46,724 nucleotides of DNA from a virus (taxonomy: Duplodnaviria > Heunggongvirae > Uroviricota > Caudoviricetes). Positions 31,266 through 35,390 of the stretch are shown here, one piece after another. Made by a program: the position numbers and the translations under genes. The notes beneath the pieces were generated by a model that was not told the DNA's origin, did no database searches, and saw only the letters and a list, made by a program, of their open reading frames with translations. Where the stretch lies: IMG/VR virus record IMGVR_UViG_2579778634_000020. One strand, given 5' to 3'. Numbering within the stretch: position 1 is the first letter of the stretch; every line of letters begins with the position of its first letter.

Positions 31266-31537
31266 TTCTTAATCTCTCGATGGCGCAGCGCAGCAGATGC
31301 CAGTTGTTCAGGCTGACGTATGAAGTATAAATAAACTGGCTCCAGTGTAAAGCCCCACCTTAATGGAATAAAAACCAAACAACAGATTGCTGGGATACAA
31401 ACAACGCTTATTATTAAAAGCGGTTAAACAAATTAAATTTTAATGTTATGCAAATCTGCCAGATCACCATAATATCTCATTTGAAAACCGCTGAAATAAC
31501 AACCCTATTAGGGTTAATCATATTAAGGTGAGTAAAT

Positions 31538-31624
31538 ATGGAAAACAACAAATCTGCACATTACGTTCCTTTTTTATCTGTAATACTTTTTGTTTTATGC
31601 TGTGCGTGGGCATTATTTTTATAA
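31538..31624 (+). CDS. Candidate small hydrophobic peptide (28 aa)
   Basis: ATG at 31538 preceded by AAGGTGAG; encodes MENNKSAHYVPFLSVILFVLCCAWALFL, a polar head then a single hydrophobic helix. Convergent with hok. Confidence 0.3.
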   Translation: MENNKSAHYVPFLSVILFVLCCAWALFL

Positions 31625-31730
31625 AAATATTCACAGATAAAATATACCCGCCAAAGTTGGTTAAGTGCGGGTGCGTTGAGGATGCCTGACTCATCAGAGG
31701 TGGCGAGGGATTTCTCCCTCGCCTGGTCTC

Positions 31731-31883
31731 TCACTCCTCAGGTTCGTAAGCTGTGAAGACAGCGACCTCCGTCTGACCGGTTCGGATTTGTACCTCGCAG
31801 AAGTCTTTCCTTGTTACCAGTGCCATCACAACGACGGTAATACAGATGACAATCAGGGCGGTTAACATCGTCTTTTGCTGCAT
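31731..31883 (-). CDS. hok: Hok/Gef-family type I toxin (HokD/RelF-like)
   Basis: Minus-strand translation MQQKTMLTALIVICITVVVMALVTRKDFCEVQIRTGQTEVAVFTAYEPEE (50 aa), near-identical over most positions to E. coli HokD/RelF as I recall it (MKQQKAMLIALIVICLTVIVTALVTRKDLCEVRIRTGQTEVAVFTAYEPEE). A 9-bp perfect hairpin (31701-31722) follows the stop. Confidence 0.85.
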   Translation of the reverse strand: MQQKTMLTALIVICITVVVMALVTRKDFCEVQIRTGQTEVAVFTAYEPEE

Positions 31884-31897
31884 CACAGCCTACTTAC

Positions 31898-31932
31898 CCT
31901 TACCTTTCGTTCAAGCGGTAAGGTCACTTTTT
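31898..31932 (+). terminator. Plus-strand hairpin plus T-run antisense to the hok 5' region (candidate Sok-like RNA terminator)
   Basis: CCTTACC (31898-31904), 12-nt loop, GGTAAGG (31917-31923), then TCACTTTTT. It lies just upstream of the hok start codon on the opposite strand. No convincing promoter was identified. Confidence 0.3.
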
Positions 31933-32031
31933 CTGTTGTGTGCTAACCAACAAACCTCTTTTATCTGCATTAAAAATCGTTATCATGTCATCCTCAACCT
32001 GTTAATAGCCTATTATGGACTTTAGTAAACA

Positions 32032-33861
32032 ATGAGCACTTCCGCATACAAGAGCAAAATTCGAACACTCCAGTGCGCGTTAAAAAACGGTGAATTTGAA
32101 CCATTCATACAACATATCCGTTTTCCATACTTTAAAAATATAGAGCAGAATGCAAGGATCGATTTTCAGTTCCCTATAACGGCTTTAGTAGGAAAAAATG
32201 GAACTAATAAAAGTTCTGTTATCAAAGCGCTATTTGGTTGCCCACATGGTAAAAATATAACTCGTTATTGGTTCACAACTGAAACAGATGAGTTTCCTGA
32301 CCTAAAACTTGCTGATGGCAGTTCTCTTAAACCTAGATATATATATGGATATAAAAATGCTGATGGCCGTTTAGTTGAAATACTCCAAGCACGTATCAAT
32401 GCTACCAAGAAAACAATCGATTATTGGGAAACAAGTCGACCATCTGTTGGTGATAACATGGAGAGTATTTCGGATGATCTGGGTGCTAATAGTAATGCAA
32501 CCAGATGGAAAAAAATCAAGAAGGGATTGGTTTTCCTAGATTTCAGATCGGAAATAAGTGCATTTGATAGATGTATGTATCACTCTGATTTTAAATTAAG
32601 AAAGAAGAAGAGTGGTGTATTAATTACAAAGCAAGACTATATCAGAAGCAAATCTAAATATATAAAGAAAGCTTTTGATGAAAAGCTAAGTAATTTAAGA
32701 CTCTGGGGGGCGGAAACCATTGTTAAAAATATAACCTTGGCGCCAGAACTAGTTGAGCACGTCTCATTTATATTAGGGAAAAAATATAAAGTCATTAAAT
32801 TTCTTGAGCATCGGTTATTTGGAACCAGAGGAGGAACCGCTTTACTTTCAACTGATAAGTTGAACTATACAGAAGCGTTTGCTGGAAGTGGTGAATTTGC
32901 AATAGTTTCACTAATACTCAATATTTATTCGGCCAAACCTAATTCATTAATTCTTCTTGACGAACCAGAAGTTTCACTTCACCCTGGTGCACAAAAAAGG
33001 ATGATGGATGTTCTGTACTCTATTGTTGAGCAGAAAAAACATCAAGTGGTAATATCAACCCATTCTCCTGTTATTGTGAACACTCTTCCCAAAGATGCCA
33101 TTAAATTATTTGTTTTTGATGAAGAGAGTGAAACAGCTAAAATAGTTCAAAATATAGCACCGGATGAAGCTTTTATAGAGCTAGGGCATGATATTAACAA
33201 GAAAACAATAATTGTAGAAGATAAATTAGCTAAAGCAATTATAGATAAAGCGATTAAAAATGATGAAAGATTAAGCTTATCATTTAGTGTAAGTTATATA
33301 CCAGGTGGTTCGGAGACCATTTTAAGCAAGCATCTTCCCAGTTACGCTGTGGTAGAACGCAATGATATTTTGTTTTTACTTGATGGTGATAAAAACAAAA
33401 AAATAAAACCAGTAAGAATTAGTGAAATTGCTGATGCTGATTTAGTTAATACAATGTGCAAATATTATGGTTGCGAGTTAATTATCAATGCCAGTGGTAG
33501 TAATGGCAAAAAAAATGAACAAGAATCTAATAGACTCAAAAGGCAAGTGCTTGAGTATGCATTCAATAAAGTGCAGTATTTACCATTTGATACTCCCGAA
33601 CAATTACTCATTGAAAAGGCAATTACGCCAAGTGAAAAAGAAATAATTGATTCACAGACCTGGAGTTCTAATGATCCAGAACTGTATAAGAATCAAATAA
33701 GATTATTAGCGCAACACCTGTATGATAAAGAAGAAGTAAATGCAGAGGAAATTTTTTGCCTCCAACAAATGATGACCGCAAGACTTAAAAATGAATTGCC
33801 TGAATTTATAAAAATAAGAAAAATAATTACTCAGGCTCTTGACCGTGGTATCATTAGGTAG
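32032..33861 (+). CDS. OLD-family-like nuclease candidate: ABC-type ATPase with a C-terminal TOPRIM-like region
   Basis: 609 aa. P-loop variant LVGKNGTNKSSV (54-62), Walker B and D-loop LILLDEPEVSLHP, H-loop VVISTHSP; C-terminal TIIVEDKLAKAII … ILFLLDGDKNKK gives a conserved Glu and a DxD about 55 residues apart as in TOPRIM. Architecture and size resemble P2 Old / GajA-like proteins. Visibly AT-rich gene. Confidence 0.7.
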   Translation: MSTSAYKSKIRTLQCALKNGEFEPFIQHIRFPYFKNIEQNARIDFQFPITALVGKNGTNKSSVIKALFGCPHGKNITRYWFTTETDEFPDLKLADGSSLKPRYIYGYKNADGRLVEILQARINATKKTIDYWETSRPSVGDNMESISDDLGANSNATRWKKIKKGLVFLDFRSEISAFDRCMYHSDFKLRKKKSGVLITKQDYIRSKSKYIKKAFDEKLSNLRLWGAETIVKNITLAPELVEHVSFILGKKYKVIKFLEHRLFGTRGGTALLSTDKLNYTEAFAGSGEFAIVSLILNIYSAKPNSLILLDEPEVSLHPGAQKRMMDVLYSIVEQKKHQVVISTHSPVIVNTLPKDAIKLFVFDEESETAKIVQNIAPDEAFIELGHDINKKTIIVEDKLAKAIIDKAIKNDERLSLSFSVSYIPGGSETILSKHLPSYAVVERNDILFLLDGDKNKKIKPVRISEIADADLVNTMCKYYGCELIINASGSNGKKNEQESNRLKRQVLEYAFNKVQYLPFDTPEQLLIEKAITPSEKEIIDSQTWSSNDPELYKNQIRLLAQHLYDKEEVNAEEIFCLQQMMTARLKNELPEFIKIRKIITQALDRGIIR

Positions 33862-33884
33862 TGATTCTGGATGCAGAGGGAAAA

Positions 33885-34925
33885 ATGAAAAAAATCAAAG
33901 TGTTTGACTTCTTTTCCGGTTGTGGTGGAACCAGCCAAGGTTTCCATCAAGCTGGAATGGATATTGTTTTTGGCCTCGATTTCGACGTTGATGCAGCCAG
34001 TTCATTTCGTGCAAATTTCCCGCAGGCTGCTTTTATTAACTCGGACATTAGGTTAATCGACAACAATGCCATAAACAAGTTAGTAAAAAAACATCGTAAT
34101 GATTACATTCTTTTTTCAGGATGTGCGCCTTGTCAACCGTACTCTAAGCAAAACTCAAATAAGAAAAATGATGATCCACGATTAGATCTATTAAAGGAAT
34201 TCAGTCGCTTTGTAGAGCATTATATGCCTGATTTTATTTTTGTTGAAAACGTGCCAGGAATGCAAAAGTTTAACAAAAATGAAGGAACATTCATGATGTT
34301 TTTAGAAATGCTTTCATCAAAGGGATATAGTGTAGATTATAAAGTAATGCCAGCTGCGTGGTACGGTGTACCACAGACGCGAGAAAGATTAGTGCTCATT
34401 GCATCCAAGGATTTTTATGTCGCATTGCCTTCTCCTACACATGGGGTTGGAAATACTCCCTATTCAACAGTAAAGGACTGGATCGCTAATTTACCGAAGA
34501 TAGAAGCAGGAGAAAAGCATAATAGTATTCCTGATCATGAAGCTGCACGCTTATCAGAGCTTAATTTACGTAGAATAAAATGCACTCCTGAAGGTGGAAG
34601 TCGAGAATTTTGGCCAGATGAATTGATTTTAGAATGCCATCGTAACCATAAAGGGCATACAGACGTATATGGACGTTTGAGTTGGGACAAACCAGCCAGC
34701 GGACTAACAACTCGTTGTATTAGCTATTCAAATGGACGTTTTGGACATCCAACACAAAATCGAGCAATATCGGTTCGTGAAGCAGCGTGTCTACAAACAT
34801 TTCCTTTGGATTATAAATTTATTGGTTCTTTGCAATCTCGGGCTCGTCAAATAGGAAATGCGGTCCCTCCGAAGATGTCTGAAACGATTGGAAAACATTT
34901 GCTTAATATAATCAAAGCCTCCTAG
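33885..34925 (+). CDS. DNA (cytosine-5)-methyltransferase
   Basis: Motif I FDFFSGCGGTSQGF, motif IV GCAPCQPYS (catalytic PC), motif VI ENV, motif VIII QTRER, motif X GNAVPP. ATG at 33885 with RBS AGAGGG; an in-frame GTG at 33861 overlaps the upstream TAG. Confidence 0.9.
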   Translation: MKKIKVFDFFSGCGGTSQGFHQAGMDIVFGLDFDVDAASSFRANFPQAAFINSDIRLIDNNAINKLVKKHRNDYILFSGCAPCQPYSKQNSNKKNDDPRLDLLKEFSRFVEHYMPDFIFVENVPGMQKFNKNEGTFMMFLEMLSSKGYSVDYKVMPAAWYGVPQTRERLVLIASKDFYVALPSPTHGVGNTPYSTVKDWIANLPKIEAGEKHNSIPDHEAARLSELNLRRIKCTPEGGSREFWPDELILECHRNHKGHTDVYGRLSWDKPASGLTTRCISYSNGRFGHPTQNRAISVREAACLQTFPLDYKFIGSLQSRARQIGNAVPPKMSETIGKHLLNIIKAS

Positions 34926-34938
34926 GAGGCTTTATTTT
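34914..34938. terminator. Palindromic terminator between the convergent MTase and early-right genes
   Basis: AAAGCCTCC-TA-GGAGGCTTT palindrome at 34914-34933 containing the MTase TAG stop, followed by TTTATTTTATT. Also hairpin-forming on the minus strand, with a weaker T-tract. Confidence 0.55.
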
Positions 34939-34958: not shown

Positions 34959-35390
34959 TTAATCGTGCTCACCAGACAACCTCCTGAAATTACTCTGGTA
35001 AAATGCCAGTACACGCTGCATAACTTCGCTTTTCCGGCACTCGCGACAGATTATATTCAGGCGCCTGTCGTAGCGGCGTATTTCTCCGTCTGGTAATGAC
35101 CAGATAAGGTCAGGATCAACCACAACCGTTTTTTTCACCTTTGCCCTGGATAGTTTTTTGCGGGCGTTTTGCCAGTCCTTACGAGCCTGCTCAGACGGGA
35201 ATAATCCGTAGCCTGAATTGTAAACATCACCACTGGCGACCAGTTCTCTGGCGAGAGTGCTTATGTAATACCTTGATGCACCGGTTTTAGCCTCCAGAGC
35301 CCGTAACGTCTCGCGACCGCTCAGACGTACAAGTTCAACAACCTGCCCTTTAATTTTTTCCCGCTCTTCTGGTGTAAATACTTTTGCCAT
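34959..35390 (-). CDS. Hypothetical protein (143 aa)
   Basis: ATG at 35390 preceded by RBS GGAGG. Basic protein with a Cys pair (ICRECRK). No family recognised. Confidence 0.55.
   Translation of the reverse strand: MAKVFTPEEREKIKGQVVELVRLSGRETLRALEAKTGASRYYISTLARELVASGDVYNSGYGLFPSEQARKDWQNARKKLSRAKVKKTVVVDPDLIWSLPDGEIRRYDRRLNIICRECRKSEVMQRVLAFYQSNFRRLSGEHD

Follow-up and report, generated by a model that had tools for sequence, protein, structure and literature searches.

A conserved pairing of an OLD-like ABC ATPase–TOPRIM nuclease with a C5-cytosine methyltransferase: a candidate restriction–modification-like cassette of a Rac-type Escherichia coli prophage

Nucleases of the OLD family have been sorted by gene context into five classes, namely lone genes such as P2 Old and TsOLD (Class 1), genes beside a UvrD-like helicase, as in Gabija GajA (Class 2), retron genes, as in Eco8 (Class 3), the AriA and AriB genes of PARIS (Class 4), and archaeal Cran1 with a membrane protein (Class 5); no class has a methylase. 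Another protein that joins an ATP-binding cassette (ABC) ATPase to a TOPRIM nuclease, HEC-04, is a validated single-gene defence that is inactivated by a Walker A mutation or by the E319/D375/D377 mutation, shows toxicity upon induction, and depends on its ATPase site as well as its TOPRIM site (10.1101/2024.01.29.577857). IbfA, a member of the HEC-04 family encoded by IncI1 plasmids, gives an abortive-infection-like phenotype in which phage DNA replication is unaffected (PMC12111858). Here we describe a two-gene cassette in a stretch of 46,724 nucleotides (IMG/VR record IMGVR_UViG_2579778634_000020; "the window" is this whole stretch), which is a Rac-type prophage of Escherichia coli. Its first gene (32032..33861, plus strand; RefSeq WP_000107696.1, "ATP-dependent nuclease") encodes a 609-aa OLD-like ABC ATPase–TOPRIM protein, and its second (33885..34925, plus strand; RefSeq WP_000721512.1, "DNA cytosine methyltransferase") a 346-aa C5-cytosine methyltransferase (MTase). 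A preliminary description of the region had read it as an operon and a candidate "modification-dependent" defence module; both open reading frames (ORFs) lie where that description had placed them, and all of the motifs that it quoted occur in the translations.

The association between OLD-like nuclease and C5-MTase is conserved, widespread and apparently undescribed. In a collection holding one genome per species, we examined 80 loci with homologs of the ATPase at 33–63% identity, drawn from Proteobacteria, Actinobacteria, Bacteroidota, Firmicutes, Acidobacteria, Patescibacteria and other phyla. A C5-MTase is encoded in 74 of them, and three of the six loci lacking it end at a contig border, giving 74/77 testable loci; in 58 loci the MTase gene is directly adjacent on the same strand, either downstream (42) or upstream (16) of the nuclease gene. 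An independent viral set of 64 IMG/VR contigs contained 61 testable loci, and the MTase adjoins the nuclease in 60 of these, 50 times in tandem downstream, 4 times upstream and 6 times convergently. When both sets are pooled, a C5-MTase neighbour is found in 134 of 138 testable loci (~97%). The reverse test gave the same picture, with a ~590-aa ATPase directly upstream of three of three MTase homologs (Klebsiella, P. syringae and Pasteurella), all of them in prophages. Conservation of the two genes as neighbours, which the preliminary description had made a check on its reading, is therefore seen in many phyla and in several gene orders. That description knew of no named system with this pairing, and we likewise found none in PADLOC 2.0, in NCBIfam 20.0, in the definitions of OLD Classes 1–5, in a 2008 census of restriction endonucleases (REases), or in the full-text literature; the ABC-ATPase classification of Krishnan/Aravind 2020 (PMC7544218) and REBASE lie outside that search, and the former, as the paper likeliest to mention the pairing, may contain a prior description.

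Within E. coli, the allele of the window, a cassette of 2.9 kb, is present in 32 of 5,426 complete genomes, with both genes at 99.4% identity or higher; the carriers include ATCC 8739, a laboratory strain in common use, and Shiga toxin-producing E. coli (STEC) strains of serogroups O103 and O111. Eighteen further genomes match a diverged MTase, and in all three that were inspected it belongs to a diverged nuclease–MTase pair in the Q-holin moron slot. In none of these 50 E. coli genomes was one of the two genes seen without the other. In Citrobacter, the pair occurs at 83% and 93% identity in a non-Rac setting. The prophage moron slots occupied by the pair comprise the hok-DUF977 interval in Rac, the Q-holin slot, and positions directly after cI-like repressors, and the pair is found outside prophages too, as well as beside Type I restriction–modification (R-M) genes and other defence genes. 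In P. syringae (L089:2434-6023) and Pasteurella (L090:2439-6038), the pair lies directly downstream of a cI-like repressor gene (HTH_3 + Peptidase_S24) on the same strand. The position directly after a cI-like repressor is that of rexAB in lambda, and it suggests that the pair may be expressed in the lysogen at these two loci. Among deposited phage genomes in INPHARED, tblastn returned no homolog at E<=1e-20, and a plasmid collection yielded one weak match only, whereas the 64 IMG/VR contigs encoding a homolog are mostly apparent predicted proviruses. Among phages, the pair therefore seems confined to integrated or unisolated temperate elements.

The 609-aa translation contains GKNGTNKSS, LILLDEPEVSLHP, ISTHSP, IIVEDK and LLDGDKN. 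The first three belong to an N-terminal ABC-type ATPase head (approximately residues 20–375; 32089..33156, plus strand) with Walker A at G54..K60-S61, the signature motif at S286-G287, Walker B at D310-E311 and the H-loop at H344. The remaining two lie in an OLD-type TOPRIM with a C-terminal helical domain (approximately residues 388–609; 33193..33858, plus strand), in which E396-D397 and D451-G-D453 supply the conserved Glu and the DxD metal site; the protein thus has both halves expected of an OLD-family member. Against Pfam, it matched AAA_21 at 1.8e-20 and AAA_15 at 3.6e-20, and among the PADLOC models it matched HEC-04 and the retron I-B ATPase-Toprim model, the latter at 2.8e-26, a match that indicates homology only. 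The AlphaFold model has a predicted local distance difference test score (pLDDT) of 84.7. A sequence search of the PDB found TsOLD as the best match (3.4e-11), a fold search with the C-terminal region found BpOLD and TsOLD, and the top structural matches of the head domain are ABC ATPases of the Rad50/SbcC/RecF/UvrA group. Hidden Markov model (HMM) and structure searches therefore place the protein in the group proposed for it in the preliminary description, ABC ATPase with OLD-type TOPRIM, rather than in an unrelated family. In BpOLD, a catalytic lysine and a second metal site come from the helical domain behind the TOPRIM (PMC6755086). The cassette protein also has a helical domain there, and its residues K553 and E523, candidate equivalents of those sites, are invariant or nearly so in an alignment of 114 pairs. 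NCBIfam 20.0 holds no equivalog for the nuclease family, every match falling far under the cutoff. A profile search of 1.84 billion representative proteins retrieved 548 clusters (50% identity) at E<=1e-30, nearly all of them ~600 aa long, and on this evidence the predicted nuclease is a discrete and sizeable protein family.

The second gene is, by every profile applied to it, a complete C5-MTase, and methylation activity is predicted. Motifs I (FSGCGG), IV (PCQ), VI (ENV), VIII (QTRER) and X (GNAVPP) are all present; PF00145 (DNA_methylase) matches end to end at 5e-61, TIGR00675 matches above its cutoff at 1.5e-48, and PADLOC MTase_II matches at 1.4e-96. The predicted domain assignments of both cassette proteins are thus far beyond chance. 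The closest solved relatives of the MTase are the catalytic domains of eukaryotic DNMT1 (~1e-38), the bacterial enzymes M.HaeIII (1e-20) and M.HhaI (1e-14) being much weaker matches. The preliminary description had proposed that the two genes are coupled either by a TAG-GTG overlap or by a ribosome-binding site followed by an ATG. The longest MTase ORF does begin at a GTG at 33861 (33861..34925, plus strand), but the true start is almost certainly the ATG at 33885, because it is preceded, at a distance of ~7 nt, by the Shine-Dalgarno sequence GAGGG, the RefSeq start is there, and the N-termini of homologs align from there and lend no support to the overlapping start. Direct reading of the sequence accordingly gives a nuclease stop codon (TAG) at 33859-61, a 23-nt intergenic spacer containing the GAGGG (33862..33884, plus strand), and then the MTase ATG. 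At homologous loci, the spacing between the two genes is typically ~25–60 nt, or the genes overlap, and such tight coupling fits a stoichiometric complex of the two predicted proteins.

Considered together, these observations lead us to propose, with a probability of roughly 0.55, that the cassette is a two-gene, ATP-dependent, R-M-like module for defence and addiction, carried as a prophage moron. The C5-MTase would mark the resident DNA, of both host and prophage, with 5-methylcytosine (5mC) at its target sites. The ABC/SMC-like ATPase head of the 609-aa effector would bind or scan nucleic acid, and its OLD-type TOPRIM would act as a metal-dependent nuclease to cut unmarked DNA, such as that of a superinfecting phage. 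The nuclease might work with or through the MTase, as the Res subunit of Type III enzymes does with Mod, or else read the status of cytosine methylation, and the pair might stabilise its carrier through post-segregational killing, as other R-M systems do. We infer that the substrate is DNA, that methylation protects it, that the two proteins interact, that phages are restricted, and that the two genes are functionally interdependent. An R-M-like coupling of an OLD-type nuclease with an MTase had been one of the options of the preliminary description, and the genomic evidence favours it. The defence-module part of its heading is likewise supported, but "modification-sensitive" would be a better term than "modification-dependent", as methylation should protect DNA rather than make it a target. 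A 5mC-dependent (Type IV-like) nuclease was rejected on logic, since it would kill its own methylating host.

Both catalytic centres are under strong constraint. In a sample of 114 non-identical nuclease–MTase pairs, ATPase residues K60, S286/G287, D310/E311 and H344 are invariant (114/114), as are E396/D397, D451/D453 and K553 of the TOPRIM region and the PC, ENV and QxRxR motifs of all 114 partner MTases, whose best conserved part is the target-recognition region (residues 261–300). Pairwise distances of nuclease and MTase are correlated (Spearman r = 0.61, a value reached in 0 of 999 Mantel permutations), and the MTase is usually the better conserved of the two (50–65% versus 37–42% identity for the ATPase). 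Among nucleases at least 60% identical, the MTases always co-vary. At greater distances, partners have been exchanged: the ATPases of L028 and L009 are 57% identical and their MTases 34%, the ATPases of the L015/L042 group and of L054/L059 are 50–53% identical and their MTases 31–34%, and L071 and L073 have an HpaII-type MTase only 23% identical to the usual partner. Despite these swaps, the partner is always a C5-MTase. We compared 30-residue segments of the nuclease and found none that diverges more in swapped than in same-clade pairs at matched identity, the largest difference being 0.07 in a test whose pairs are not phylogenetically independent and whose identity bins are coarse. Because the MTase is swapped without a matching change in any nuclease segment, the nuclease itself is probably not sequence-specific, and it gives no sign of a target-recognition module that tracks the MTase.

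The swaps bear directly on the possibility of a classical Type II-like arrangement, in which the ABC-TOPRIM protein would be a sequence-specific endonuclease for the MTase's site and act independently of the MTase protein. The arrangements of the pair, tandem, reversed and convergent, resemble those of classical R-M pairs, whose neighbouring R and M genes are found in every orientation; better conservation of the MTase than of the nuclease is usual for such pairs; and GajA provides a precedent for a sequence-specific OLD-family enzyme that recognises a DNA motif (PMC8136825). Yet closely related nucleases are found with exchanged MTase lineages, the HpaII-type included, and no nuclease segment tracks the swap. 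Moreover, the invariant ATPase motifs imply the use of ATP, and the 2008 fold census of Type II REases lists no TOPRIM or ABC enzyme (PMC2441816). We consider a Type II-like endonuclease quite improbable. Within the proposed R-M-like reading, the version in which the nuclease depends on the MTase is preferred in view of the partner swaps, the invariance of the ATPase motifs, and the close translational coupling of the two genes.

The neighbours of the pair offer a further view of what the MTase does. A vsr gene is found in 15 of the 80 genome loci. Vsr is a repair enzyme for 5mC deamination that usually accompanies enzymes introducing 5mC into DNA, and its recurrence as a neighbour implies that the predicted partner MTases methylate DNA in vivo. 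The idea that the MTase is instead a DNMT2-like tRNA methylase guarding against a tRNase was disfavoured, as DNMT2 is a far weaker match than the DNA MTases and Vsr implies 5mC in DNA. The recurrence of Vsr could also be taken to mean that the MTase is the payload, shielding phage DNA from host restriction, and that the ABC-TOPRIM protein eases its side effects (MTase–DNA adducts or methylation-linked lesions), much as Vsr does for Dcm. Orphan Dcm-like MTases are common in phages, the structural matches of the head domain to the repair ABC ATPases noted above would suit such a helper, and Cran1, an OLD protein of archaea, has no part in defence. On the other hand, every bacterial member of the OLD family characterised to date is a defence or toxic effector, TOPRIM nucleases have no known link to adduct repair, the pair also resides outside prophages next to other defence genes, and convergent arrangements are typical of R-M pairs. 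A helper role of this kind therefore seems to us very unlikely.

Besides Vsr, one other family recurs as a neighbour in the 80 loci, a ~550-aa protein with GHKL (HATPase_c_3) and Hypoth_Ymh domains, whose gene, at ten loci (L028, L063, L064, L065, L070, L074, L075, L077, L080 and L085; e.g. L074:3306-4958), is flanked by the MTase and ATPase genes and shares their strand. This protein is the "R.NmeAIP-type" putative restriction gene product of the 2008 census (PMC2441816). No nuclease domain is known in it. It has 2,774 homologs at E<=1e-20, and it usually forms its own two-gene module with a C5-MTase, with or without Vsr, and is sometimes stacked with the ABC-TOPRIM gene. A further idea, that the ABC-TOPRIM protein is the cutter which the GHKL-type "REases" of REBASE lack, was rejected as a general rule, as its gene is absent from all four GHKL+Ymh loci sampled elsewhere (L162-L165). 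An MTase 63% identical to that of the cassette is named "M.HgiDII" in one source, but R.HgiDII was rejected as a candidate for this ATPase since it has an N-terminal GHKL domain.

Other effector-like genes are stacked in a similar way. At four loci (L082:361-4961, L083:343-4990, L139:5767-9566 and L069:8337-11291), the ABC-TOPRIM gene adjoins genes for a HEF_HK GHKL protein and a Response_reg_2 protein, which together have been described as a two-component-like R-M module with C5-MTases, with the ABC-TOPRIM ATPase unmentioned there (PMC8011034). Two of these loci, L069 and L139, had been candidates for MTase-free loci and were rejected as such, since they have this architecture with the MTase ~5 kb away, as in L082 and L083. 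In two Bacteroidota loci (L071:3919-4992 and L073:3910-4986), a complete HpaII R-M pair precedes the ATPase gene within a tight operon, and in two actinobacterial loci (L015:3921-4754 and L042:4012-4806), a SmaI-like REase gene separates the MTase gene from the ATPase gene. One methylase thus appears to serve two different nucleases at these last four loci. It is more apt to say that ATPase effectors of several kinds have a C5-MTase as partner, and that a single MTase sometimes has more than one of them stacked on it. At ~85% of loci, however, the MTase is the sole partner of the ABC-TOPRIM protein.

Such stacking is one of the arguments for the main rival to an R-M-like module, a guard or abortive-infection model. 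Here the ABC-TOPRIM protein would be a suicide effector similar to PARIS, Old or IbfA, perhaps an RNase or tRNase, that is silenced by the C5-MTase or monitors it, and DNA methylation would not be the self signal. A phage that inhibits or titrates the MTase, depletes S-adenosylmethionine (SAM) or deploys an anti-restriction protein would free the effector, and the infection would be aborted. The abortive phenotype of IbfA (PMC12111858), the toxicity of HEC-04 upon induction with its need for both active sites, and the exchange of MTase partners with no change in the nuclease would all agree with this, as would the presence of the ABC-TOPRIM gene on top of complete R-M pairs (HpaII, SmaI-like) and GHKL systems, like a second layer of defence. 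Furthermore, P2 Old and AriB are reported to be tRNases, and AbiR provides a precedent for a methylase-dependent abortive infection system (PMC13064643). Nevertheless, where the MTase is the sole partner there is no first-line restriction system to guard, and a mere bait would need neither the catalytic motifs of the MTase, invariant in every pair of the sample, nor its strongly constrained target-recognition residues. The partner, in addition, is always a C5-MTase that co-diversifies with the nuclease. We therefore judge a guard model to be unlikely, and prefer the logic of an R-M-like module because of the near-obligate and orientation-independent linkage, the constrained catalytic centres, the recurrence of Vsr, the moron and defence-island settings, and the predominance of the MTase as sole partner.

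Several points weigh against the R-M-like reading. Two homologs, from Cryobacterium (L047:2913-6728) and a myxobacterial metagenome-assembled genome (L061:4884-6728), keep all catalytic residues of the ATPase and TOPRIM with no C5-MTase within 5 kb. Approximately 15% of loci add an effector-like gene (GHKL+Ymh, HEF_HK+receiver, R.HpaII or SmaI-like REase) on the same MTase, so the ABC-TOPRIM protein could be an accessory layer rather than the restriction enzyme. The nearest characterised relatives, HEC-04/IbfA, P2 Old and PARIS AriB, act alone or without a methylase, and several of them are reported to act as abortive-infection effectors or tRNases and not as DNA restriction enzymes. The nuclease gene comes first and no controller protein is present, an order in which the establishment of a true R-M system in a naive host would need explaining. 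Finally, the support for the function assigned to the family is genomic throughout. As an observation on the first of the two MTase-free loci, the neighbour in L047 is an HNH_2 endonuclease gene.

A bolder form of the R-M-like reading, which we advance tentatively and rate somewhat below an even chance, is that the cassette represents the minimal form of an unrecognised ATP-dependent R-M type. The C5-MTase would then be both the self-marker and the target-recognition partner of a non-specific ABC-ATPase/TOPRIM nuclease, the nuclease family would be a sixth, methylase-defined OLD class, and it would be one of several interchangeable ATPase effectors, along with GHKL+Ymh and HEF_HK/receiver proteins, that operate on C5-MTases.

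The cassette consists of two plus-strand genes inserted within the minus-strand early/nin operon of the prophage and bounded by genes for Hok/Gef (31731-31886) and DUF977 (34959-35390), both annotated on the strand opposite to the cassette, as are all other genes flanking it. Its GC content is 34–39%, compared with ~50% in both flanks. The preliminary description had called the pair AT-rich, antisense to the phage operon, next to a hok toxin gene and closed by a palindromic terminator, and each of these features is borne out. The last of them is a perfect hairpin, AAAGCCTCC-TAGG-GGAGGCTTT, at 34914..34933, detected by a hairpin scan and by direct reading, with stems of 8–9 pairs and T-rich tails on both strands, which spans the MTase stop codon and resembles a bidirectional intrinsic terminator. 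The non-coding region upstream of the cassette (31887..32031, plus strand) is, by its position, the expected promoter site, and it contains no sigma-70 consensus promoter. An Rfam search of the cassette and its flanks gave no match, and at 31400-32030, where the Hok/Gef gene is annotated, no Rfam hok mRNA/Sok antisense family reached the gathering score. Comparison with other Rac-like phages sets the borders of the cassette at ~32000 and ~34980, and no transposon-like direct or inverted repeats were found around it. The slot from hok to DUF977/lygF is a variable cargo site in Rac-like phages, and the cargo of others among them is a Paa adhesin, an acetyltransferase, or a methylase together with a Ren-like exclusion protein.

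The prophage itself occupies the whole window (1-46724) and is 100% identical to NZ_AP022105.1 2503139-2549862. It is near-complete, with intR, xisR, ralR, recET, kilR, sieB, racR, ydaSTUV and trkG in addition to lysis, head and tail genes. Unlike the Rac remnant of K-12, it retains full head, tail and lysis modules, although the annotation gives a frameshift in its tape-measure gene and marks one tail-fibre gene as partial. Further accessory or conflict genes in it are trkG, sieB, kilR, ralR, hok, a Lom-family gene and ydaS/ydaT.

If the proposed reading is correct, the cassette would represent a new R-M enzyme architecture, made up of ABC ATPase, TOPRIM nuclease and C5-MTase, and would add a methylase-defined class to the OLD family, whose known members otherwise work singly or have helicases, retrons or split partners beside them. 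Nor is the family a rare one; its ~550 clusters at 50% identity extend from Enterobacteria to Actinobacteria and Bacteroidota and recur in prophage moron slots. Current defence-finder models would miss the cassette, or call it a weak HEC-04 match plus an orphan methylase. The pairing bears on the role of the many "orphan" Dcm-like methylases of prophages, and on how OLD-type nucleases are restrained from killing the host.

How does the cassette compare with systems already described? All 33 aligned family members have HEC-04 as their best PADLOC model, but the match is always partial, covering profile positions 160-383 of 494. With IbfA of plasmid R64, the 609-aa protein shares 28% identity over 227 aa by BLASTP (residues 236-464), and hhalign gives a probability of 98.8% over columns 245-464; the match spans only the signature motif, Walker B and H-loop through to the TOPRIM, and the N-terminal half and the C-terminal helical domain are unaligned. 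The cassette protein, like HEC-04/IbfA, carries its ABC ATPase and TOPRIM nuclease within one polypeptide, and its VED and DGD metal-site motifs align with the residues whose mutation abolishes HEC-04 defence. HEC-04/IbfA, however, is ~500–518 aa long, acts alone and has no obligate methylase neighbour. Because the match is confined to the core from signature to TOPRIM, the 609-aa protein represents a sister family of HEC-04 and not a member of it.

With the OLD family in general, the protein shares the N-terminal ABC ATPase, the C-terminal TOPRIM with its helical extension, and the prophage and defence settings, although similarity is weak outside its Walker B and H-loop. It departs from Class 1, which has no conserved neighbour, through its near-constant C5-MTase, and from Class 2 in that no helicase family is among the recurrent neighbours and the GajA models match the Walker B region only. 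No reverse transcriptase, as in the Class 3 retron Eco8, and no membrane-protein partner, as in Class 5 with Cran1, is found among the neighbours at the cassette loci, and whereas PARIS (Class 4) has separate genes for the AriA ABC ATPase and the AriB DUF4435 TOPRIM protein, the cassette protein is a single fusion. WonAB of V. cholerae was rejected as the same system, as it lacks a methylase and the nuclease beside its ABC ATPase is of the PD-(D/E)xK type.

The GHKL partners of C5-MTases (R.NmeAIP-type, R.EcoUTORF4938P-type and paraMORC) resemble the cassette in that an ATPase protein is obligately linked to a C5-MTase, often with Vsr, but their ATPase has the GHKL and not the ABC fold, and no nuclease domain is recognised in them (PMC2441816, PMC2292703, PMC8011034). 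At the ten GHKL+Ymh and four HEF_HK loci noted above, they have both operon and MTase in common with the ABC-TOPRIM gene. Given that the four sampled loci elsewhere are without an ABC-TOPRIM gene, the GHKL-type proteins are therefore parallel effectors rather than the same system. AbiR of Lactococcus is likewise a non-canonical defence, toxic to the host unless a specific methylase (M.LlaKR2I) is present (PMC13064643), a dependence that for the cassette is a proposal. It differs in comprising three unrelated proteins (sigma-like, ParB-like, and a nuclease-Snf2 helicase), with no ABC ATPase or TOPRIM (PMC13064643).

Type II R-M systems share gene adjacency with the cassette, whose fold is outside those listed for Type II REases (PMC2441816); a Type II endonuclease needs only Mg2+, whereas the invariant ATPase motifs of the cassette protein argue for ATP dependence. 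The proposed logic is closest to that of Type III and Type I R-M, in which genes are tightly linked, self is marked by an MTase that may also provide target recognition, and the cutting of unmarked DNA falls to a separate ATPase-nuclease. Those systems, however, use superfamily 2 (SF2) helicase-type motors, PD-(D/E)xK nucleases and N6-adenine MTases, where the cassette has an ABC ATPase, a TOPRIM and a C5-MTase, so that it would resemble Type III enzymes in its proposed logic alone.

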